A stretch of DNA of 37,221 bases, from positions 1-37,221 of the forward strand of contig JAOUDF010000003.1 of NCBI GenBank assembly GCA_029859385.1. The letters are read 5' to 3'. Made by a program: the position numbers and the translations under genes. Each line of letters begins with the position of its first letter. Within the stretch, counting starts at the first letter, position 1. Positions 5,162 through 14,653 of this stretch are shown piece after piece. Source of the stretch: Nitrospirota bacterium. Lineage in GTDB: Bacteria > Nitrospirota > JAOUDF01. The notes beneath the pieces are model-generated. The model was not told the origin of the DNA and did no database searches. It saw only the letters and a list, made by a program, of their open reading frames with translations.

Positions 5162-6382
5162 ATGTATAAAAAACTCGCCATTATCGTCATACTGATCGCC
5201 ATTGTGGCCGGAGCGGTGTACCTCATCAAAAAGCCCCAGGCCGCCGTCCCGGTGAAGACCCTCACTGTCGCAAAGGGCGATTTCACCATCTCCGTCTCGT
5301 CTGCCACCACTTCCACGGTAAAGTCGGAGCGTGAAATCAACATAAGCGCGCAGCGCAACGGGAAGCTCATTGCCTTTTCCCTTAATGAGGGTGATCTCGT
5401 AAAGAAAGGGCAGGTGGTCGCCCGCCTCGACAGCGAGGAGGCCGAACTCCAGGTACAGCAGGCCGGAGCATCGCTGCGGCAGGCAAAGGCGCGCATCGGG
5501 CAGATCCAGGCCGAAATCACCATGGCTCGGGAATCATCCATGGCCCAGGTCGCCGAGGCAAAGGCCGCGCTGGATGAAGCCGCCAGCGACCTCAAGCGAA
5601 AGCAGATTTTGTTCGAGCGCGGGATGATCTCCCGGCAGGAGATCGACGCGGCGGTCGGCGCGGAGGGCGGGGCCCGGGGTCGCTACGACAACGCCATTGC
5701 CAATCGCGCCCAGGAGCAGATAAAGGAGGACGAGCTGACAACGGCCCGGGCACGGCTGAGAGAGCTCGAGGCCACTCTCGGCCTGACCAGCCTTCAGGTC
5801 GACTACGGCACGATCCACGCCCCCATCAATGGCGTGGTATCAAAAAAGCTGGTGGAGCAGGGGGAATATGTCATGACCGGCGCTCCACTGTTCCGGCTCA
5901 CCGATCCCGGCAACCTCTATATCGAAGTCGCCATCGACGAGTTCGACGCAAAATACCTCAAGCTGGGGCAGGCCGCCAAGGTGCGGATGGACGCCTTCCC
6001 CGGTGAGCATTTTACGGGCAGGGTGACGCTGGTCTCCCCCATTGTCATCGGTGAAAAGCTCCAGACAAGGACCTTCCTGGTGCGGGTGATGCTCGACGAC
6101 CGGAGGATAAAGATAGTCCCCGGCATGTCGGCCGATGTGGAGATCATCGCCCAGGAGGTGAGCGGGGTGCTGTCGATCCCCACTTCATCCATCGTGGAAA
6201 AGGACCAGCGGAAGATGGTCTATGTAGTCGCAGAGGGCAAGGCCGTCCTGACTCCTGTCACCAGGGGTATTACCACATGGAACGCAACGGAGATCACCGC
6301 GGGGCTGACGGAAGGGCGAAAGATCGTCACCAATCCCGAGGTACTGAACCTGCGCGACAATGTCCGGGTGAAGGAACAGTAG
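5162..6382 (+). CDS. Efflux transporter periplasmic adaptor subunit (HlyD/MacA-like MFP)
   Basis: N-terminal TM, lipoyl-like halves (EGDLVKKGQ, IHAPINGVV) around a coiled coil, and PGMSADVEI. Confidence 0.9.
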   Translation: MYKKLAIIVILIAIVAGAVYLIKKPQAAVPVKTLTVAKGDFTISVSSATTSTVKSEREINISAQRNGKLIAFSLNEGDLVKKGQVVARLDSEEAELQVQQAGASLRQAKARIGQIQAEITMARESSMAQVAEAKAALDEAASDLKRKQILFERGMISRQEIDAAVGAEGGARGRYDNAIANRAQEQIKEDELTTARARLRELEATLGLTSLQVDYGTIHAPINGVVSKKLVEQGEYVMTGAPLFRLTDPGNLYIEVAIDEFDAKYLKLGQAAKVRMDAFPGEHFTGRVTLVSPIVIGEKLQTRTFLVRVMLDDRRIKIVPGMSADVEIIAQEVSGVLSIPTSSIVEKDQRKMVYVVAEGKAVLTPVTRGITTWNATEITAGLTEGRKIVTNPEVLNLRDNVRVKEQ

Positions 6383-6401
6383 GCAGGCTGAAGAGAAAGG
6401 C

Positions 6402-6430
6402 TCGACAGTTCCTCAATAATTCTGTATCGT
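6402..6430 (+). promoter_or_regulatory. Possible sigma70 promoter of selC
   Basis: TCGACA-17 nt-TATCGT ending 11 nt before the tRNA. Confidence 0.4.
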
Positions 6431-6441
6431 TATGTCGACGA

Positions 6442-6539
6442 GGGAGCGGATAGGGTCTGGTGGCTCTTGCGGACTTCAAATCCGTGGGCGGACATCCCCG
6501 CGATGGCCGCGGTGGGTTCGATTCCCACCCCTCCCGCCA
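6442..6539 (+). tRNA. selC: tRNA-Sec (UCA)
   Basis: Anticodon loop CTTCAAA (TCA at 6476-6478), 6-bp D stem with TGGT loop, long variable arm, TTCGATT T-loop, G discriminator plus CCA. Adjacent to selD and selA. Confidence 0.97.
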
Positions 6540-6559
6540 GAACTGGAAACTAAAACCAG

Positions 6560-6680
6560 GAAACAGGAAATTTTTCGCAAGGTCAAGGCGGACGAAGAAT
6601 TGCGCGGAGGCGTACATTGAAGTACGTCGCACAAGCAATCCTGAAGTCCAACGCAGAGATTGCGGAAAAGGGCCTGTTTC
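6560..6680. repeat. About 120-nt imperfect palindrome (REP/MITE-like or structured RNA)
   Basis: Nested complementary blocks: GAAACAGG/CCTGTTTC, TTTTCGCAA/TTGCGGAAA, GGAC/GTCC, ATTGC/GCAAT, CGTAC-ATTGAA-GTACG. Confidence 0.6.
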
Positions 6681-6693
6681 AAAAGAGGTGTGC

Positions 6694-7116
6694 ATGACCT
6701 GGGGTTCCGTATATCTACATCGTCAGCGCGCCCCCCGCGTGAGCATCAGCCTGCCCGTCGAATACGATGCAGACGGCGCCTCCGATACGTTATCAGCCGA
6801 AGCCGCCGACAGCCTGAAGAAGACCGAATCCAAAAACATCAGTGAGGGCGGCCTGCTCCTGATACTCCCCGACAGGCTTGATCTCGATTCGACCATCACC
6901 GTCCGCATACATGTCCCCATCAAGTATTACACCGACAGAAACAAGATATCGCCTGTCCTCGCGAAGGCCCGCGTGGTCTGGACGGACCTGATCGCGGAGG
7001 GTTCATCGGGAGAGTACCACTGCGGCATCAGCTTCACCGACATTGCTCCGGAAGACCTGGCGCTGCTGAGGGAATTCATCAACCGCTGTCTCTCCTCGGA
7101 AAACCCGCTTAAATAA
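6694..7116 (+). CDS. PilZ domain protein
   Basis: RQRAPRVSISLPVEY..NISEGGL..ARVVW..GISF. GAGGTG RBS before ATG 6694. Confidence 0.85.
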   Translation: MTWGSVYLHRQRAPRVSISLPVEYDADGASDTLSAEAADSLKKTESKNISEGGLLLILPDRLDLDSTITVRIHVPIKYYTDRNKISPVLAKARVVWTDLIAEGSSGEYHCGISFTDIAPEDLALLREFINRCLSSENPLK

Positions 7117-7141: not shown

Positions 7142-8197
7142 ATGACCCAGAAAGAAAAGATACGCCTGACCCAACTGGCGTCCTGTTCCGGCTGAGCGGC
7201 CAAACTCAGTCTGAAAGACCTGTCCCAGGTGCTGGGGCAGCTGCCGAAAGGTGAAGACAACCCCAACGTCCTGGTCGGGCTTAACGACCCGGACGACGCG
7301 GGGGTTTACCGCCTTGACGACCGGATGGCCATGGTCCAGACGGTGGACTTCTTTCCGCCCATCGTGGACGACCCGTACGACTTTGGCGCCATTACGGCGA
7401 CCAACGCCATCAGCGATGTCTATGCCATGGGCGGCAGGCCCGTCACCGCGCTGAACCTGACGGCCTTTCCGGAGAAGGAGCTGGGAAGCGGCATACTTGA
7501 TAAAATACTCAAAGGCGGCCACGACAAGGCGGCCGAGGCAGGGGTCGCCGTCATCGGCGGACACTCCATAAACGACAAGGAAATAAAGTACGGCATGGCG
7601 GTGACCGGCCTCGTCGAGATCGAGAAGATGGTCACCAAGGGGGGTGGACGACCGGGAGATATACTGTACCTCACCAAACCCCTGGGAGTGGGGATCATTG
7701 CAACGGCGGCCAAGCGGGACCTGGCCCCGGAGAAGGCATTGAAAAAAGCCATCAAATCGATGAGTGAGCTCAACAGGGGCGCAGCGGAGGCCATGGTAGC
7801 CGCGGGAGTGCGGGGTGGAACCGACGTTACGGGATTCGGCCTTCTGGGGCACCTGTGGGAGATGCTGGTCGCGGGCAAGGTGGGGGCCGAGATATCGGCC
7901 TCGGCGATACCGGTGTTCGAAGAGGTCTGGGACCTGGCGTTGGCCGAGATAATGCCCGGCAGGACAAAGGTCAACCTCGATTATCTGAGCGAGCATATCG
8001 TCTTCGAAGGCAGGGTCCCGCCGCAGACCCGGCATATCCTCTGCGACCCGCAGACGTCGGGCGGGCTGCTCATCGCGGTTCCCGAGGCATCGAGAGAGAT
8101 ATTTCTGCGCGAGGCCGAAGCCCGGGGCGTAAAGACGGTGGCCGAAATAGGCCGGTTAGTCAAAGACAAGGAATGCAGGATAAGGGTGACGCCATAA
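7142..8197 (+). CDS. selD: Selenide, water dikinase (selenophosphate synthetase), Sec-containing
   Basis: MTQKEKIRLTQLASCSG-UGA(7193-7195)-AAKL is in frame with the downstream ORF containing DDAGVY, TVDFF, NAISDVYAMGG, TDVTGFGLLGH and DPQTSGGLL. An alternative ATG lies at 7139. Confidence 0.95.
7196..7240 (+). promoter_or_regulatory. Candidate bacterial SECIS hairpin(s) in selD
   Basis: Two stem-loops follow the UGA: CAGTCT-GAA-AGACCTG (7207-7222) and CTGTCCCAG-GTG-CTGGGGCAG (7220-7240). Confidence 0.5.
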
Positions 8198-9597
8198 TGG
8201 AACAGAAAACCAGCAGACAGGCCGAGTTGAGAAGGCTTCCCAGCGTGGAGGAGGTCCTTCAGGTACCGGCGCTGGCACCGTGGATAGAAACTCTTTCGCG
8301 GGCCGTCGTGACGGCGGTCGTGCGGGACCAGCTTGCGTCCATACGGAAAGCGGTCGTCGATGGCGCCGACTGCCCCGATGAGTCCGCCATCCACGGCCGA
8401 ATCGCGGCCGCCCTGAAGCAGAAATCACTCTCCACCCTCAGGCCGGTCATCAACGCCACCGGCGTTATCCTTCACACCAATCTCGGTCGCGCCCCCCTTT
8501 CGAAAGCAGCCATTCAGGCGTTGACGGAGGTGGCAGCAGGGTACAGCAATCTCGAACTCGATCTCTCCTCGGGAAAGCGTGGAAGGCGCGCGCCCTTTAT
8601 GGAAGAGCTGGTCCGTCACCTCACCGGTGCAGAGTCGGCGCTGGTGGTCAACAACAATGCGGCTGCCCTCCTTTTGGCCCTGGGAACTCTGGCCAATGGC
8701 AAAGAGGTAATCATCTCGCGGGGAGAGCTTGTGCAGATCGGGGGCGGGTTCCGGATACCCGACATACTCCAGCAGAGCGGGGCAAAGCTCAAGGAGGTCG
8801 GCACCACCAACCAGACCTACGCATCGGATTACGAAAAGGCCATCGGCCCCGATACCGCCATGATCCTCAGGGTTCACCACAGCAACTTCAGGATGCTGGG
8901 GTTCACCCATCAGGCCGAGCGCCGCGATCTGGCAGCCCTGGCGGAGCGGCACAACATCCTGCTTGTCGAAGACCTGGGAAGCGGCGCCGTGGCCGACACC
9001 GCCGCCTTCGGCATGGAACACGAACCGACCCCGGCCGACTCGCTGGCAGCGGGGGTACATCTGGTTTGCTTCAGCGGCGACAAGATTCTGGGCGGCCCCC
9101 AGGCGGGGATACTGGCCGGGAGAAAGACGCTGGTCGAGCAGATGCGCAGGCACCCGCTCCTGCGGGCCATAAGGGTCGACAAGCTACAGGCCGCGGCCCT
9201 TCAGGCGACCCTTATCGACTATCTCAAGGGTGAACCGGAGAAGCGCAACCCCGTCTGGCAGATGTTGTCGGCCACGATTGATTCGCTGCGCTTACGGGCG
9301 GAGGAGCTGGCGGCGACACTGAAGAACGCGGGGATTGCAGCGGAGGCGACTCCCTGCACCAGCGCCATGGGAGGCGGTTCGCTGCCGGAGCAGGATATGC
9401 CGTCATACGGCGTAACCGTTACTCCTGCCTACCCGGTTAATGAGGAGGAAGAAAAACTGCGCACCGGTGAGACGCCGATCATGGCGCGGATAGAGGAAGA
9501 CAGGCTGGTGCTGGATTTGCGGACGGTGCTGCCGGGGCAGGATGATACGCTGGTCAAGGCGCTTTGTGACAGTTTGTCGGAAGCACCGTTGCGATAG
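8197..9597 (+). CDS. selA: L-seryl-tRNA(Sec) selenium transferase
   Basis: VINATGVILHTNLGRAP, VVNNNAAA, EVGTTN, EDLGSG and FSGDKILGGPQAG (PLP Lys). The ATG overlaps the selD stop (TAATG). Confidence 0.97.
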   Translation: MEQKTSRQAELRRLPSVEEVLQVPALAPWIETLSRAVVTAVVRDQLASIRKAVVDGADCPDESAIHGRIAAALKQKSLSTLRPVINATGVILHTNLGRAPLSKAAIQALTEVAAGYSNLELDLSSGKRGRRAPFMEELVRHLTGAESALVVNNNAAALLLALGTLANGKEVIISRGELVQIGGGFRIPDILQQSGAKLKEVGTTNQTYASDYEKAIGPDTAMILRVHHSNFRMLGFTHQAERRDLAALAERHNILLVEDLGSGAVADTAAFGMEHEPTPADSLAAGVHLVCFSGDKILGGPQAGILAGRKTLVEQMRRHPLLRAIRVDKLQAAALQATLIDYLKGEPEKRNPVWQMLSATIDSLRLRAEELAATLKNAGIAAEATPCTSAMGGGSLPEQDMPSYGVTVTPAYPVNEEEEKLRTGETPIMARIEEDRLVLDLRTVLPGQDDTLVKALCDSLSEAPLR

Positions 9598-9650
9598 AAC
9601 GGCTGGATCAGCCACGGCTGTAAGGAGTTGGCTGCATCCATTTGTTGAGC
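9594..9650 (-). other. attC recombination site (57 bp)
   Basis: GCTCAAC-AAATG-GAT(G)CAGCCA(A)C-loop-GTGGCTGATC-CAGCC-GTTCTAT has an RYYYAAC R'' box, L''/L' pairing with two extrahelical bases, and a GTT core. Confidence 0.8.
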
Positions 9651-9682
9651 AATTCGTTGCCTGCGAATATCTCTTTCTACGT

Positions 9683-10414
9683 TCATGAGGGTTGACCCTC
9701 GTGCAGCTTTCTGAGTTTGGCCAGCCACGTCTCGAATGTTAGGTCGACGGTCAAGTCAAATTCTGTCTCTGCGAGATACGTCCATTCCATACCCACTGGT
9801 ACCGTCTTCTTTCGCACTTCATTCCCTTCGTTAATCTCCGCCCACATCTCCGTGGGACATTTGTCAGATAGGACTTGCATTAGTTCACGAATCAGCTTGA
9901 AGATGATTGTCGCATATTCCATTACTTCATCAAACGATGCTATGTAGCCTCGATGTATGACTTTGTTTCGAAGTTGCGGGATTTTCTCTGATAACTCGAA
10001 CGACTCACCCGCTATAGCCGGAAACAAAAAGAGAAAGGCGCCAAACTGCCGCTCCGATTGGGCTTTCACATGCTTCCACGATACATCGAAAAGCGAAGAA
10101 GATAATCCAAGCTTGCGATATGCGACTCTTAGGAAGAACTCATATGCGCGCTCAAGAGCTGCCGAAAAGGTAGATACAGCTTCATTCGTGTAATGATCAA
10201 GAAGAGCGTGACAACCGGACTGGAAAAGTACATGATGTTTGCGACTTATATGCACAACAGCAGTGGTGTGACCCTTTTCGCAGGTGAGATAGACTATTCC
10301 ATTGTCGTCCATTTCAGCGTAGTAGAATAACCTAACAGGTGTCGACTCGCCTGTAGTGGTCAGCTTGTTAGCTGCTTCTTTCATGCATATCACGCAAGAT
10401 CCCGTCGCCTTCAT
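9683..10414 (-). CDS. Cassette-borne hypothetical protein with CxxC..CxxxH zinc motif and HEPN-like RxxxxH motif
   Basis: CVIC..CEKGH, then AALERAYE and LRNKVIHRG. AAGGA RBS. AT-rich relative to neighbours. Confidence 0.7.
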   Translation of the reverse strand: MKATGSCVICMKEAANKLTTTGESTPVRLFYYAEMDDNGIVYLTCEKGHTTAVVHISRKHHVLFQSGCHALLDHYTNEAVSTFSAALERAYEFFLRVAYRKLGLSSSLFDVSWKHVKAQSERQFGAFLFLFPAIAGESFELSEKIPQLRNKVIHRGYIASFDEVMEYATIIFKLIRELMQVLSDKCPTEMWAEINEGNEVRKKTVPVGMEWTYLAETEFDLTVDLTFETWLAKLRKLHEGQPS

Positions 10415-10432
10415 TATTCCTTATCCATCATT

Positions 10433-10485
10433 GCCCAACGTATAGCTAGCGCCAGAATGGCGCGAATTTGAGCGAATTGTTAAGC
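10433..10485 (-). other. attC recombination site (53 bp, short)
   Basis: GCTTAAC-AATTC-GCTCAA..GCGCC-ATTCT-GGCGC-TAGC-TATAC-GTTGGGC. The stop codon TAA of the upstream ORF lies inside the R'' box. Confidence 0.75.
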
Positions 10486-10857
10486 ATGACCTTCTTTTGA
10501 TCCTGCGAAGTAACCGACTGCATAGCCGATTGCTCCAAGGACAAAACAATATACTGGAAGTACCGCAAAAATTAATGCGCTTGTAGAGCTTCCAGTTGCT
10601 GTACCGTTAATATCGAAATACCACTGAATATGAATAAACCACATTAACGGAATAACTGGAACAAGAAACCCTTTTATAGCTGAGATATGTCGTTTTTCCC
10701 CTTTCCTTCCAGCCAGTATGGTCCTTATGAAAATAAGAATTAACGGTAAAAGTACCCAAAGTGAGCCAATATTGGGAACCACATTGGCAAAAAACAAACA
10801 AGCAATTGCTGTGACAGTAATGATTACCTGGATAAATTTTGTATCAATGCGTTCCAT
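10480..10857 (-). CDS. Cassette-borne small integral membrane protein (about 4 TM), function unknown
   Basis: MERIDTKF.. with four hydrophobic segments. AT-rich, and ends within the attC R'' box. Confidence 0.65.
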   Translation of the reverse strand: MERIDTKFIQVIITVTAIACLFFANVVPNIGSLWVLLPLILIFIRTILAGRKGEKRHISAIKGFLVPVIPLMWFIHIQWYFDINGTATGSSTSALIFAVLPVYCFVLGAIGYAVGYFAGSKEGHA

Positions 10858-10998
10858 GTTCTGATGCCATATCAACAAGTTATTAGATAAACGGAACCAT
10901 AGCACTAGAACATCGAATTATCAATCCATTAGCAAAAACAAAACCCGTTGGCGATACCGCCGCCCCTGGCTACTATTTGTGATTACCACTACGCCCGT

Positions 10999-12240
10999 TT
11001 ACTCCGCCGAGCGCTCCTGCTCAACTGATTCTGACGTTTCAGCTACCCTGCCCGACCGCAACACCAGCCCCCCCGCGAGACAGACCGCCCCGCATATCGC
11101 CACGGTCCACTGCACGCCGATCCGGTGCGACGCCACACCGGCAAAGAGGCTCCCGATGGGAGTAAGCCCCACGAACATCATGGAGTAGAGGCTCATCACC
11201 CTCCCCCGCAGTTCATCGGGCACCGTCGATTGCAGATAGGTGTTGGTCGAGACCAGCTGGGTAATGAGGCTGAACCCGGCCAGCGGCAAGATCAGCAGCG
11301 ACAGCCAGACGTTTGTTGACCCCGAAAAGAGGATAAGGACGACGCCGAAGGCTGACGCAGCTTTCCATACATTCCGGTCCATGCCGTCCTGCGCGTTCCG
11401 GTGGGCCAGCGCCAGGGCCCCGGCCAGGGCACCCATCCCTATGGCCCCCATGAGGTACCCCAGCAGGGCCGGGCCTCCGTGAAGGATTTCTCCGGCAAAG
11501 ACCGGCATGAGCACGGTATAGGGCGACCCGGCAATGCTGGACATTGCCACAAGGATGAGCAGCGCCCTGATGCGCGGCGTGTGCCACGCATAGCGAACCC
11601 CCTCCTTCAGCCGTTCGAGGTATGAGCCCTTTGGACCGGCAGCGGGGCGCGCTGCAAGCTGCATGACGAGAAGGCAGCCGATGACCACCATGAAGCTGAG
11701 GCTGTTTATGACAAAGCAGATCCCCTCGCCGTAGACGGCCACGGTGACCCCGGCGATGGAGGGGCCGATGAGGCGGGCGCTGTTGAAGATGGTGGAGTTG
11801 AGCGCTATGGCGTTGGAGAGGTCCTTGCGGTCGACCAGCTCCACGATGAACGACTGGCGGGCGGGCATGTCCACGGCGTTGATGAAACCGAGAAAGAGCG
11901 ACAGGGCGATGATATGCCAGACCTCGATGGTCCCGGCTATGGTGAGCACGGCGAGAAGGGCCGCCTGAAGCGCAGACAGCGCCTGGGTGATGACGATGAC
12001 GCGCCGCTTGGGAAAGCGGTCGGCCACCACCCCGCCCCACAACCCCATGACCAGCATGGGAAGCTGGGAGCAGAAGGCAACAATGCCCAGGAGAAAGGCC
12101 GAATTGGTCATGCGGTAGACGAGCCACCCCATGGCCACCTGCTGCATCCATGTGCCGACGAGGGAACAGAGCTGGCCGATGAAGAAGAGTCGGTAGTTTT
12201 TGTACTGGAGGGCGCGGAAGGTTTCTTTGGTTGAAAGCAA
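10999..12240 (-). CDS. MFS transporter (MFS_3/DUF894-like)
   Basis: NYRLFFIGQ..SLVGTWMQ, GVVADRFPKRR, DMPARQSF and LRGRVMSLY. About 12 TM segments. Confidence 0.92.
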   Translation of the reverse strand: MLSTKETFRALQYKNYRLFFIGQLCSLVGTWMQQVAMGWLVYRMTNSAFLLGIVAFCSQLPMLVMGLWGGVVADRFPKRRVIVITQALSALQAALLAVLTIAGTIEVWHIIALSLFLGFINAVDMPARQSFIVELVDRKDLSNAIALNSTIFNSARLIGPSIAGVTVAVYGEGICFVINSLSFMVVIGCLLVMQLAARPAAGPKGSYLERLKEGVRYAWHTPRIRALLILVAMSSIAGSPYTVLMPVFAGEILHGGPALLGYLMGAIGMGALAGALALAHRNAQDGMDRNVWKAASAFGVVLILFSGSTNVWLSLLILPLAGFSLITQLVSTNTYLQSTVPDELRGRVMSLYSMMFVGLTPIGSLFAGVASHRIGVQWTVAICGAVCLAGGLVLRSGRVAETSESVEQERSAE

Positions 12241-12263
12241 CTTTGATGGTCTCGCAAACAGCC

Positions 12264-12365
12264 GTCACACCGGTGAAAACCGGTGTCCAGCGACTTTGTA
12301 GCTATCCAAGAGAACTGGATTCCGGCTGGAGTTTACCCCGTACCTTGATACGGGGCCGGAATGAC
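12264..12365. repeat. GTCA..TGAC-type REP-like palindromic element
   Basis: GTCACACCGGT-GAAA-ACCGGTGTCCAG followed by CTGGATTCCGGC..CCCCGTA-CCTTGA-TACGGGG-CCGGAATGAC. Confidence 0.7.
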
Positions 12366-12404
12366 AAAAACTCTCCTCGACTTTCCCTACTTAATTTTGG
12401 GCCT

Positions 12405-13235
12405 TTACCGTATAGATGCTTTATAAGAGCTGCGCACCAGCGGGCCGGACACTACTTTGGCAAAACCAAGGGAGAGGGCCGCATCCTGCAGCTCGTCGAA
12501 CTCCTCTGGCGGCACAAACCTTGCCACCGGGTGCCCCTGCCCGCCGGGGTTGAGATACTGGCCGATGGTGAGGCTGCGGCATCCCACCGAGATCAGGTCC
12601 TGCAGCACCGTCATTACTTCGCTGGTCGTCTCACCCATGCCAAGGATGAGGCCCGATTTCGCCGTGAGCCCCGCCCGGGAAACCTTCTGCAGAAGATGCA
12701 GCGACCGTTCGTAGGCCGCGCCGGGCCTTACCTGCCGATAGAGCCTTTGGACCGTCTCCACGTTGTGGCCGAAGACATCGGGCTTCGAGTTGATCACCGT
12801 GTCGATGGCCGCATCATCTCCCATAAAATCGGGGGTCAAAAGCTCGACGGTACAGGAGGGGATTGTTTCACGGATGGCCGCCACGGTCAAGGCGAAGATG
12901 CGCGCCCCGCCGTCGGGAAGGTCATCCCGCGTTACCGAGGTAATGACGGCATGGCGGATGCTCAGTTGCTTCACCGCCGCCGCCACCCTCTCCGGTTCAT
13001 GCGGGTCGACATCCTCCGGCTTGCCGCCGGGGATGCCGCAGAAGGCGCAGTTGCGGGTACAGACATTGCCGAGGATCAGAAAGGTGGCGGTGCCGCTGCC
13101 CCAGCACTCCCATCGGTTGGGACAGCCGGAACTCTGGCAGACGGTGTGCAGCCCTTCGGCCGCAATGGTCGAGGCTACCGCGCGGTAGGCGTCGTTTTCG
13201 ATCGGATTTATTTTGAACCAGGGAGGTAACGGCAT
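12405..13235 (-). CDS. lipA: Lipoyl synthase
   Basis: CX4CX5C (CQSSGCPNRWEC), radical-SAM CTRNCAFC, HNVETV and RSSY. Confidence 0.96.
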   Translation of the reverse strand: MPLPPWFKINPIENDAYRAVASTIAAEGLHTVCQSSGCPNRWECWGSGTATFLILGNVCTRNCAFCGIPGGKPEDVDPHEPERVAAAVKQLSIRHAVITSVTRDDLPDGGARIFALTVAAIRETIPSCTVELLTPDFMGDDAAIDTVINSKPDVFGHNVETVQRLYRQVRPGAAYERSLHLLQKVSRAGLTAKSGLILGMGETTSEVMTVLQDLISVGCRSLTIGQYLNPGGQGHPVARFVPPEEFDELQDAALSLGFAKVVSGPLVRSSYKASIR

Positions 13236-13240
13236 AAGAA

Positions 13241-13321
13241 CCCCACCCTCACCCTAACCCTCTCCCTGAGGGCGAGGGGAGCCCCCCTCCCTTTCAAGGG
13301 GAGGGTCGGGGTGGGGATGGG
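13241..13321. repeat. BoxC-like REP pair (CCCTCACCCTAACCCTCTCCC family)
   Basis: CCCTCACCCTAACCCTCTCCC-TGA-GGGCGAGGG followed by an inverted-type unit CCCTCCCTT-TC-AAGGGGAGGGTCGGGGTGGGG. Confidence 0.7.
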
Positions 13322-13342
13322 TAAAATCGCACAATAAAATTC

Positions 13343-14653
13343 TCAGACAACCAACCCCACCGGGTTCTCCATCAAATGACGAAACTCCTGCAGAAACTGG
13401 GCGCCCTGCATCCCGTCCACTACACGATGGTCGCAGGAGAGGGTCACCATCATCCTCTTGCCCACCTTTACATGGCTGCCCGCAACCACCGGCACGTCGC
13501 TGATGGTACCAATGGCGAGGATTGCGGCCTCGGGCGGGTTGATGACGGCAATGAAGCTCTCCACGCCGAACATCCCCAGGTTGGTGATGGTGAACGTCGC
13601 GCCGGTATATTCGTCCGGTTGCAAGCCCCGTTTTCTGGCCCGCTCGACCAGTACCTTTCCTTCGGCGGCGATGACCTTCAGCGCCTTGTTGCCGCAGTCG
13701 CGGATGACCGGCGTGATGAGCCCGTCCTCCAACCCGACCGCGACACCGATATCGATGGCCTTGTGGACCTTGACCTTGTTCTCCTCGACATAGGACGAGT
13801 TGAGCTGGGGGAACTTCTTCAGGGATTCAGCCGCCGCCTTGATCACGAGGTCGTTGACCCCGATCTTCACCTCAGGGTGAGTCTCCTTGACCTCCGCCAC
13901 CACCTCCAGGGCCTTCTCCATGGGGATCTCCATGGTGAGGTAGAAATGGGGCACCGGGGCCTTGCTCTTCGCCATCTGCCGCACAATGGCCTTGCGCATC
14001 TGCGAGAGGTCTTTTACCTCGCCGGGAACAGCAGGAGCGGCAACGGGAGGCGTCGGAGTGGGTTTCGCTGCCGGTTTCGGCGCGGCAGCCGCTGGGGCAG
14101 AAGTGCCTGCCGCATCGAGGATGTCTTTTTCCACAATGCGGCCTTCAGGACCAGTGCCGTGGACTTTGGCCAGATCAACCCCTTTTTCCTCAGCCAGCTT
14201 TCTTGCTGCAGGCGAAATCATCAATCGTCCTTCCCCTGATTCAACAGGAGGGGCTGGGGACGGCGCTGCTGCTGCCTTGGGTTTTTCTTCCACCGGCTTT
14301 GCGGCGGGCGCGGCAGGCGCTGGGGCAGCCGATTTCGGCTCTTCAGCAGGCTTCGGCGCGGGTGCGGCTGGTTTGGCTTCGGCACCACCGCCGACAATAT
14401 CCGAGATATCCTCATCCGCCGTACCCAGCACCGCGATAAGCTCGCCGATAGGGGCCGCCTGACCGGGCTCCAACAGCTTCTTGCGCAGAATGCCCGAAGA
14501 GAACGACTGAAGGTCCATCACCGCCTTGTCGGTCTCCACCTCGGCAATGGCATCGCCTGCCTTCACCTCGTCACCCTCATCCATATACCAGCTGATGATG
14601 GTTCCCTCTTCCATGGTGTCGCTGAGCTTGGGCATCAGTATTTTAATGGCCAT
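13343..14653 (-). CDS. pdhC: Pyruvate dehydrogenase E2, dihydrolipoamide acetyltransferase
   Basis: Lipoyl domain (ETDKA), Ala/Pro linkers, E3-binding SPAARKLA..GTGPEGRI, and catalytic DHRVVDG. Confidence 0.95.
   Translation of the reverse strand: MAIKILMPKLSDTMEEGTIISWYMDEGDEVKAGDAIAEVETDKAVMDLQSFSSGILRKKLLEPGQAAPIGELIAVLGTADEDISDIVGGGAEAKPAAPAPKPAEEPKSAAPAPAAPAAKPVEEKPKAAAAPSPAPPVESGEGRLMISPAARKLAEEKGVDLAKVHGTGPEGRIVEKDILDAAGTSAPAAAAPKPAAKPTPTPPVAAPAVPGEVKDLSQMRKAIVRQMAKSKAPVPHFYLTMEIPMEKALEVVAEVKETHPEVKIGVNDLVIKAAAESLKKFPQLNSSYVEENKVKVHKAIDIGVAVGLEDGLITPVIRDCGNKALKVIAAEGKVLVERARKRGLQPDEYTGATFTITNLGMFGVESFIAVINPPEAAILAIGTISDVPVVAGSHVKVGKRMMVTLSCDHRVVDGMQGAQFLQEFRHLMENPVGLVV

Follow-up and report, generated by a model that had tools for sequence, protein, structure and literature searches.

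A probable integron platform without its own integrase: an orphan attI-like module and two cassettes behind selA in a Nitrospirota genome

The selA locus and its cassette array

Downstream of selA in a Nitrospirota bacterium (GTDB lineage JAOUDF01; assembly GCA_029859385.1) lies a small array of two gene cassettes whose head is, as judged from homology, an integron attachment site and cassette promoter (an attI/Pc region) related to the attI that adjoins the integron integrase gene, intI. We analysed this array within the window, by which we mean the whole 37,221-nucleotide stretch of contig JAOUDF010000003.1 (C174 in our numbering of the contigs), part of a metagenome-assembled genome (MAG) of 373 contigs and 2.78 Mb that is 95.9% complete with 5.6% contamination. 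An earlier note on this DNA, made from the letters alone, had proposed an integron-type cassette array, lacking an integrase, that had been inserted at the selA stop codon through a non-canonical genomic site. Covariance-model ranks and a homology breakpoint bear out the cassette array; the proposed mode of insertion fares less well. The locus contains the following features, where ORF denotes an open reading frame.

7229–8197, plus strand: selD (name putative), from the ORF list
8197–9597, plus strand: selA, L-seryl-tRNA(Sec) selenium transferase (Pfam SelA, E 9.7e-138), with its stop codon TAG at 9595–9597
9594–9650, minus strand: attC-2, from covariance models and fold
9600–10438, minus strand: cassette 2 including its final G (9601–10438 without it), with ORF2 (10414–9683, 243 amino acids), from homologues and the cassette boundary
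10433–10485, minus strand: attC-1, from covariance models and a homology breakpoint
10439–10875, minus strand: cassette 1 with ORF1 (10857–10480, 125 amino acids), from the ORF and its homologues
10874–10977, minus strand: orphan attI/Pc module, from homology to intI-adjacent regions and a profile
10999–12240, minus strand: MFS_3 transporter gene (Pfam MFS_3, E 8.4e-72)
12405–13235, minus strand: lipA (name putative), from the ORF list

The flanking core gene selA converges on the array, and the core gene on the other side, encoding the MFS transporter, shares the orientation of the array and ends about 20 nt before the module starts. Between the selA and MFS stop codons GC content falls from ~0.62 to 0.37–0.50, marking a low-GC island at ~9600–10980. 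The best named SelA homologues are 50–55% identical and labelled Chloroflexi, and the 40 comparison genomes are relatives at the phylum level only, with SelA at most 49% identical. In another assembly, a 47,400-nt contig is the recorded source of a SelA (protein P0105) that is 100% identical over its full length (BLASTP, 1001 versus 1003 bits).

An integron integrase encoded elsewhere in the genome

As the earlier note had observed, the window contains no intI: the integron integrase family TIGR02249 had no match on C174, and tblastn of IntI against positions 9000–13500 returned only noise (E > 3), with no intI remnant or pseudogene. Matches to TIGR02249 in the same genome lie on contigs C363, C352, C271, C198 and C180. 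IntI itself is split between the end of C363 (positions 2–230, 245.8 bits) and the start of C352 (positions 243–313, 103.2 bits), and both the IntI-specific insert and RHRY-type catalytic motifs are present in the translation. The genome thus encodes one integron integrase gene, away from the array, and the description "integrase-less" is right for the locus and wrong for the genome. Upstream of intI on C363, on the opposite strand, an intergenic region is followed by two attC cassettes (38.9 and 20.9 bits with model R3, described below).

The IntI frames of this clade are long, at ~430–560 amino acids (C363:3726–4136, equivalent to L001:1090–1500, and relatives), and carry an N-terminal extension of ~130 amino acids (MLPIPE..L..FDA...K..P......YRKWLRYFLDF) that looks like a duplicate of the SAM-like domain found at the integrase N terminus.

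An attI/Pc-like module heads the array

Directly before cassette 1 lies a module of ~100 nt (10977–10874, minus strand) that ends ...TATCTAATAACTTG/TT, the slash here and below marking the crossover point. The module comprises a conserved upstream box (CGCCAAC), a –35-like hexamer (TTGATA, 10924–10919), a –10-like hexamer (TATGGT, 10901–10896) and then the 24-nt sequence GTTCCGTTTATCTAATAACTTGTT (10897–10874), in which the last GTT is the crossover triplet (G10876/T10875). The 24 nt before the first cassette of C363, ~130 nt from the start of intI, are identical to window positions 10897–10874, and this block of 100% identity begins exactly at the GTT at 10897–10895 and ends at the crossover GTT. 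Likeness between the two loci reaches ~100 nt upstream, taking in the –35 (TTGAYA) and –10 elements at a spacing of 17 nt, and the module extends to ~50 nt short of the intI start position in C363. A third copy, on C132, shares a 26-nt identical block with the window module; it has 6 more upstream bases in common with the window and has lost the core.

The same module occurs between intI and the first cassette in relatives. It was detected in G074 (E 4.7e-7), G217 (E 0.005) and G193 (E 0.16), and is recognisable by eye beside intI in G130, G244, G045 and G172. A profile hidden Markov model built from only five relatives' intI-linked modules recovered the window copy at E 0.001 in a search of the whole genome. 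On this homology, the head of the array is an attI/Pc region related to the intI-adjacent attI. Because the ~100-nt module precedes cassette 1, the cassettes appear to sit at an orphan attI rather than at a bare secondary site, and the entry point for cassettes is most likely G10876/T10875. The earlier proposal of direct insertion at a non-canonical GWT site (GTTCT) without attI therefore lacks support in that form, GTTCTAT being instead the distal junction of the array.

The sequence TTGATA-17-TATGGT, with a TG, matches the promoter consensus at 9 of 12 positions, and its –35 and –10 boxes are kept across six module copies; we infer a Pc-like promoter that would read into the cassettes. Read-through transcription from lipA and the MFS gene is possible alongside this promoter-like site.

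A flanking 16-nt imperfect direct repeat on the minus strand (GTTCTAGTGCTATGGT, 10911–10896, and GTTCTATCGCAACGGT, 9600–9585; 12 of 16 positions alike, the first 6 identical) was considered as the junction of an inserted circle. We judged it a chance repeat because the attI homology continues upstream of 10911 and pairs with 75% likeness are common in the region. A metagenome scan with the 20-mer core found two loci only, apparently C132 and C363.

Two attC sites close the cassettes

On the minus strand each AT-rich ORF is followed by an attC-like site, with ends exactly as first read from the sequence (9594–9650 and 10433–10485). The site after ORF1, attC-1, reads GCTTAAC, 39 nt, GTTGGGC from 10485 to 10433, and both heptamers fit the RYYYAAC/GTTRRRY consensus. 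Its R'' box (10485–10479) includes the ORF1 stop codon TAA, its R' box occupies 10439–10433 with the crossover at G10439/T10438, and its short stem is a 6-bp hairpin (GCGCCA/TGGCGC) whose 5' arm contains a bulge of 7 nt. The site after ORF2, attC-2, reads GCTCAAC, 43 nt, GTTCTAT from 9650 to 9594; R'' (9650–9644) fits the consensus and R' (9600–9594) fits only in its GTT, so that three of the four heptamers over both sites agree with it. In attC-2 a 3-nt spacer leads from R'' to a 5-bp stem (TGGAT/ATCCA) with an extra G on the 5' arm, and an inner 6-bp stem (CAGCCA/TGGCTG) and a further 3-nt spacer lead to R', where the predicted crossover is G9600/T9599. This order of AAC, 3 nt, 5 bp and then an extra base is the geometry of the clade.

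Two further details that the earlier note had read from the letters proved correct. GTTCTAT (9600–9594) reads ATAGAAC on the opposite strand, with the selA TAG inside it, so that the last core site abuts the selA stop codon; and cassette 2 begins with GTTGGGCAAT, which agrees at 9 of 10 positions with the reverse complement of the cassette's own extended R'' (ATTGCTCAAC).

Rfam holds no attC family, and its scan of 9400–11100 gave two sub-threshold chance matches. In order to score the sites we used clade-specific covariance models of our own, distinct from that of IntegronFinder, with no window sequence in their training. The training sequences came from the phylum, in which 93 of 401 sampled genomes scored above the TIGR02249 cut-off; relatives of the IntI fragment of this genome, at 60–83% identity, occur in many of the TIGR02249-positive genomes. 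The relatives' arrays yielded no site in a strict scan (RYYYAAC/GTTRRRY with an energy threshold), their R boxes being looser, and we used a relaxed scan instead. For model R1, the cassette side of 16 integrons was scanned for AAC...GTT hairpins, giving 51 candidates in low-GC DNA; during curation 8 were discarded as doubtful or as having the wrong ends, 2 were adjusted and 1 was added, for a final set of 44 sites (48–66 nt). Their consensus runs AAC, 3-nt spacer, 5 bp, extra C, 3 bp, extra base, 3 bp, with a mirror arm that ends in a 3-nt spacer and GTT, and 10 of its 14 pairs show compensatory changes. Model R3 is a second, more diverse model of 31 sites with 12 pairs set by hand from pair counts. 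An intermediate model, R2, taken from the RNAalifold consensus of a diverse alignment, comprised 6 pairs without an R box and was left unused.

Across the window and the C132 and C363 loci (51,123 bases, filters off), R1 scored the known attC beside intI on C363 at 32.1 bits (E 1.3e-6), attC-2 at 14.9 bits (E 0.14) and attC-1 at 11.1 bits (E 1.9), with noise up to 10.9 bits (E at least 2.2). With R3, attC-2 reached 25.3 bits (E 0.001) and attC-1 17.3 bits (E 0.086); the next match, at 15.0 bits, had GAC instead of AAC. The E-values of both models are rough. Both models place attC-2 first and attC-1 second in the window, at full length, with the same ends as the earlier note and on the strand of the ORFs. 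In a whole-genome run in which 150 of 1441 candidates were scored, attC-2 was the best non-training match (25.4 bits, E 0.06). [quoted passage not shown]

Several observations on attC and attI sites of the clade arose alongside this search. The last attC of an array in G110 (L083:2668–2727) ends in the non-consensus R' GTTCTTA, and the attI core is GTTCAT in G074 and GTTCCC in G045; triplets of the GTTC type, comparable to GTTCTAT in the window, thus recur at array ends and attI sites. Elements of 94–102 nt, bounded by perfect terminal inverted repeats of 12 bp (CGATAACTCGCT...AGCGAGTTATCG), lie inside cassette arrays of G074 (L069:1917–2013 and 2878–2979) and G199 (L079:9121–9214), and may be a long class of attC or another small mobile element.

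The cassettes and their cargo

ORF2 has 66 homologues besides the window protein (67 matches at E ≤ 0.001), mostly 60–89% identical and mostly on short contigs, with labels that include Nitrospirae and Thermodesulfobacteriota MAGs. Among species-representative genomes we found homologues at 173 loci, the closest being L085 (63% identity), L086 (71%) and L087 (58%). Running R1 over the best 14 of these loci (89,293 bases) gave five matches at E ≤ 1, all in L085 and L086. The L085 homologue (327–1028) lies between attC matches at 250–309 and 1064–1134, and in L086 a 33.4-bit attC ends 19 nt before the homologue. No attC match (R1, E ≤ 1) was found at L087 or at 11 distant loci (at most 41% identity), so the wider ORF2 family is not always borne on cassettes.

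The window, L085 and L086 align from GTT(G/A)GGCAAT(A/G)ATGGATAAG... onward and are unrelated upstream, each having a different attC there. Homology to L085 and L086 thus begins exactly at GTTGGGCAAT, the predicted G/TT boundary. A breakpoint at G/TT in three genomes marks it as a cassette boundary and fixes the 3' end of attC-1. The ORF2 unit is a mobile cassette that recurs in other arrays.

Judged by motif and modelled fold, ORF2 is a HEPN-motif protein. Its motif R149-N150-x3-H154, of the HEPN Rx4-6H type, is invariant in 40 aligned sequences. Profile matches were to Pfam HEPN_RiboL-PSP below the cut-off (15.9 versus 28.4 bits, E 0.012) and to PADLOC Cas13c (E 0.017). An AF2 model (pLDDT 91.4) has a helical core, and the best Foldseek neighbours are the HEPN proteins 2q00 (E 0.047, probability 1.00), 2hsb, Csm6 and AbiV, none of which reaches E 0.001. 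The protein also has an N-terminal beta-domain with conserved Cys/His residues. ORF2 therefore shares with HEPN-domain RNases the invariant R-N-x3-H, the all-helical core and the structural neighbours; it differs from them in scoring below the Pfam cut-off, in Foldseek E-values of at least 0.047, in the extra N-terminal beta-domain and in having no evident partner antitoxin.

The product of ORF1 is a small membrane protein that matches nothing in Pfam or PADLOC. The protein has 35 homologues, mostly 60–82% identical and some labelled gammaproteobacterial, and a homologue in 1 of 400 other genomes of the phylum. An 89% identical ORF2 homologue and a 77% identical ORF1 homologue (P0003 and P0082) are each recorded on a 2585-nt contig from the same type of source, and cassettes 1 and 2 may be neighbours in that other sample too.

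Further orphan modules in the genome and its relatives

The core of the module is repeated in the genome. Its exact 12-mer TATCTAATAACT occurs five times versus 0.33 expected, and with up to one mismatch there are 8 copies versus 12.2 expected; because the latter count is below expectation, only the exact copies stand out. Together with module searches, these copies point to the following sites.

C363: core 12-mer, beside intI
C174 (the window): core 12-mer, two cassettes
C132, 6209–6323, plus strand: full module, with ATT for GTT; no attC at E ≤ 10
C181: core, one ORF, attC at 24.7/43.1 bits, in which R'' (GGTCTAAC) mirrors the cassette start (GTTAGACC)
C44: core, one ORF, attC at 18.1/34.1 bits
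C179: variant core TTAATAACATTGTTGGGCC, ORF, attC at 47.5/48.7 bits
C32, 496–580, minus strand: second module type, with core GTCGTTCAGATAATAACTGGTT
C185, 2412–2482, minus strand: second module type (GTCGTTCAGATAATAACTGGTT); attC-like site 1.9 kb downstream

Of the six orphan loci in the genome besides the window, four have an ORF and an attC-type match after the module, that of C185 being weak (18.0 bits, E 3.66). The module on C132 is followed by a low-GC ORF with a signal peptide (6325–6893). We found no IntI remnant by tblastn at C132, C181, C44 or C179, the four loci searched. The second module type, on C32 and C185, shares ~80 nt of common upstream sequence and resembles the intI-linked attI of G045; no second intI matching it was found in the assembly.

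Similar sites occur in relatives. G130, with one IntI (on its contig C5), has two further modules on its contig C3 (89% and 85% identity), each followed ~1 kb on by an attC (51 and 45.5 bits), and G074, with a single IntI, has one additional module, accompanied by a promoter, an ORF and an attC-like site. One weak extra copy was found in G244 and none in G172. The selA locus thus appears to be one of several satellites in its genome, with C132, C181, C44, C179, C32 and C185, and a similar arrangement appears in two relatives that have a single IntI.

Variation between strains

We compared the locus with contigs, rather than reads, from four sequencing runs at 85–99% likeness, the best of which has 14% of the words of the window. 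Contigs of all four cover selA and the MFS gene. None covers 9637–10471 or joins across the island, an absence that in contigs says nothing by itself, and one run has slight depth over 10472–10805. The junction of the MFS gene with the module is present on contigs of two runs (X3 record 23, 10916–11066; X6 record 28, 10927–11128). A 192-nt contig (X6 record 27) matches 10874–10963 with one mismatch and diverges right after the GTT, leaving 102 nt that depart from the window on the cassette side. This suggests that the module is stable and its content variable between strains. The one sign of the alternative alleles that the earlier note had envisaged at the selA–MFS junction is this short, low-depth contig.

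A model for the array, and its rivals

We consider it likely that the element is an integron platform without an integrase of its own, consisting of an orphan attI, a Pc-like promoter and two cassettes that end in attC sites. In formal terms it is a CALIN of two cassettes whose genome encodes IntI. IntI from C363/C352 would act in trans on the orphan attI, which it would bind in double-stranded form together with the folded bottom strand of the attC of a circular cassette. Strand exchange at G/TT (10876/10875) would bring new cassettes in beside the promoter, and resident cassettes could be excised by attC × attC or attI × attC recombination. Transcription of the cassettes would run from TTGATA-17-TATGGT towards the 3' end of selA. 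The last attC runs straight into the DNA that follows the selA stop codon, and on this reading GTTCTAT is the sequence that adjoined the attI core on its right until a first cassette entered. On the same reading, an empty attI would read ...AATAACTTG/TT joined to CTATCGCAACGG, and the junction of a circular cassette would read attC-2 ...CCAGCCG/TTGGGCAAT.

How the module came to lie behind selA is a separate matter. IntI1 inserts cassettes at short 5'-GWT-3' genome sites (attG sites), according to the sections drawn on here of 10.1101/2022.09.11.507474, and a possible route is an attG-type insertion of a circle that carried attI. The imprecise excisions of Loot et al., as far as the part of that work drawn on here describes them, would be in keeping with a module cut out upstream of attI and put back at a GWT site; no diagnostic upstream junction was found for a spread of modules by excision and re-insertion. 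More tentatively, and with the odds somewhat against it, the satellites may together form a distributed integron, in which a single integrase serves many scattered attI/Pc landing pads, each with one or two cassettes and its own promoter, and in which the attI modules, too, can move. One conceivable way of spreading is for IntI to excise a module upstream of attI along with the adjacent cassettes, with re-insertion at genomic GWT sites.

Several observations weigh against the reading of the array as a platform with orphan attI. IntI lies on two contigs with ~12 residues unseen between them and may not be intact, and C363 and C352 are tied to the organism of the window by binning and shared motifs, in a MAG with the contamination given above. 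The Pc is called from the 9/12 consensus match. In attC-2, R' departs from the consensus and the top strand has one extra base, a G, as against the two of the clade consensus, which include a near-invariant C. Single-strand folds of both attC sites are no better than those of shuffled sequences (z –0.6 to –1.5), and attC-1, at 17 bits, stands at the whole-genome noise level of 17–18 bits; we take it as real because of its context and the homology breakpoint at its R' end. The only sign of alternative content is a single short, low-depth contig whose non-matching part is unread. Finally, the C132 copy has an ATT core and no detectable attC, because of which some satellites may be dead, and C132 itself may be a dead or fixed one.

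The orphan-attI reading has to be set against three others. An array that is the fossil of a complete integron, from which an intI between the MFS gene and attI was cleanly deleted and which now decays unserviced, would explain why the module spans nearly the whole attI region and why the C132 copy looks inactivated, and integrase loss is one origin of CALINs in the portion of Cury et al. (PMC4889954) that treats it. However, tblastn found no intI remnant and the module starts ~20 nt after the MFS stop codon; the attI core is 100% conserved with an active-looking copy, and strains seem to differ in what follows it. Clean loss of intI is conceivable at one locus, but the six further orphan sites here and the three in two single-IntI relatives would need many independent clean deletions, so that the explanation is strained for nine loci across three genomes, and we regard it as unlikely. 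Insertion of the cassettes by IntI in trans directly at an attG site (G/TTCT at the selA stop codon), with no attI involved, would yield a small CALIN of the sort that Loot et al. ascribe to insertion into the genome. Two-cassette CALINs are common in the material drawn on here from 10.1101/2022.09.11.507474, the distal GTTCTAT is non-consensus and overlaps the selA stop codon, and IntI is encoded elsewhere. The empty allele would then read from the MFS terminator ...G/TTCTATCGC without an attI module. Plain insertion leaves no attI, yet ~100 nt of attI-homologous sequence stand upstream of cassette 1, the left junction falls exactly at the conserved ...AATAACTTG/TT core, and related strains have the MFS–module junction with different downstream content; we hold direct insertion to be improbable.

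That the islet has nothing to do with integrons, its attC-like and attI-like motifs having arisen by chance or the module being a shared promoter and operator of a regulon, seems to us very improbable indeed. The weak fold z-scores and the noise-level score of attC-1 would agree with chance, and the conserved 20-mer just downstream of the promoter-like –10 is at a possible operator position. Yet two independent models each give the two sites first and second place, the breakpoint falls at G/TT in three genomes, ORF2 homologues are flanked by attC elsewhere, the module lies beside intI in five relatives, and an ORF with an attC-type match stands behind it at four of the other orphan loci.

Relation to known integron systems

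Small arrays of this kind are familiar. In the data of 10.1101/2022.09.11.507474 used here, 1362 of 2961 CALINs have two cassettes, and about half of CALINs lie in genomes that encode IntI elsewhere (PMC4889954, in the sections cited here). Like those CALINs, the present array is small and has at least two same-strand attC sites after co-oriented ORFs, no nearby intI and an IntI elsewhere; unlike the CALINs portrayed in these sections, it is headed by a recognisable attI and promoter, and several such units coexist with one IntI. CALINs that were split from an integron are, in the account of their origin by Cury et al. (PMC4889954), separated from Pc, whereas the array here has a promoter-like head. 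With a complete sedentary chromosomal integron the array shares the order of attI, G/TT and two cassette–attC units with the promoter pointing inward, an attI homologous to that of C363, and cassettes of low GC whose functions are unknown or defence-like. It differs in lacking an adjacent divergent intI, the MFS gene ending ~20 nt before the module with no pseudogene in between.

Insertions at attG sites and single attC sites lacking an integron integrase (SALINs), as presented in the sections of 10.1101/2022.09.11.507474 drawn on here, likewise lie outside an integron and at a core gene's 3' end, with IntI supplied in trans and a non-consensus GTT-type distal triplet; attG sites there are without an attI-like structure, whereas an attI homologue precedes the array here. 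The Delta-attI-type cassettes of Gonzales Machuca et al. 2026 (PMC12901181) are also attI-derived sequence away from intI, still usable by IntI in that system. As characterised in the part of that paper used here, they are truncated attI1 or attI2 sequences at the downstream site of resistance cassettes in class 1 and 2 arrays, unlike the nearly full attI/Pc modules that here head separate chromosomal loci. Our limited literature search surfaced neither attI/Pc heads on CALINs nor their multiplicity in a genome, and we make no claim that they are absent from print.

There are roughly as many CALINs as complete integrons, and opinion is divided on how CALINs arise and whether they are active, with debris, split arrays and secondary-site insertions as the candidates. 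IntegronFinder detects attI for class 1 only (class 1–3 patterns in the 2016 version), other attI sites being left out as "poorly described" in the tool descriptions, so far as used here (PMC4889954, PMC9024848). Standard tools are thus blind to attI outside class 1, and from their output one cannot judge whether a CALIN has a docking site and a promoter. With a clade-specific attI profile, CALIN-like loci of this genome and of two relatives are seen to start with an attI/Pc module homologous to that adjoining the single intI. Should these sites work, an integron could be a network of promoter-equipped landing pads in which several cassettes occupy the first expressed position at once, removing the usual limit of expression to promoter-proximal cassettes. 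They would also offer a concrete, testable system for the evolution of attI and for cassette colonisation of core-gene neighbourhoods, here behind selenocysteine genes. If the integron is in fact distributed in this way, many small "CALINs" would be expression-competent, cassette-capturing satellites and not debris.

A repeat close to three orphan attI loci

A repeat of ~100 nt resembling a repetitive extragenic palindrome or a miniature inverted-repeat transposable element (gtcacaccggtgaaaaccggtgtccagcg...ctggattccggc...gccggaatgaca) occurs at window positions 12240–12370, at C132:4301–4400 and at C181:9290–9330, these copies lying 0.1–2 kb from three orphan attI loci. In other samples its summed contig depth is 157 and 69 (bin 12142–12308), versus single digits to ~30 elsewhere.

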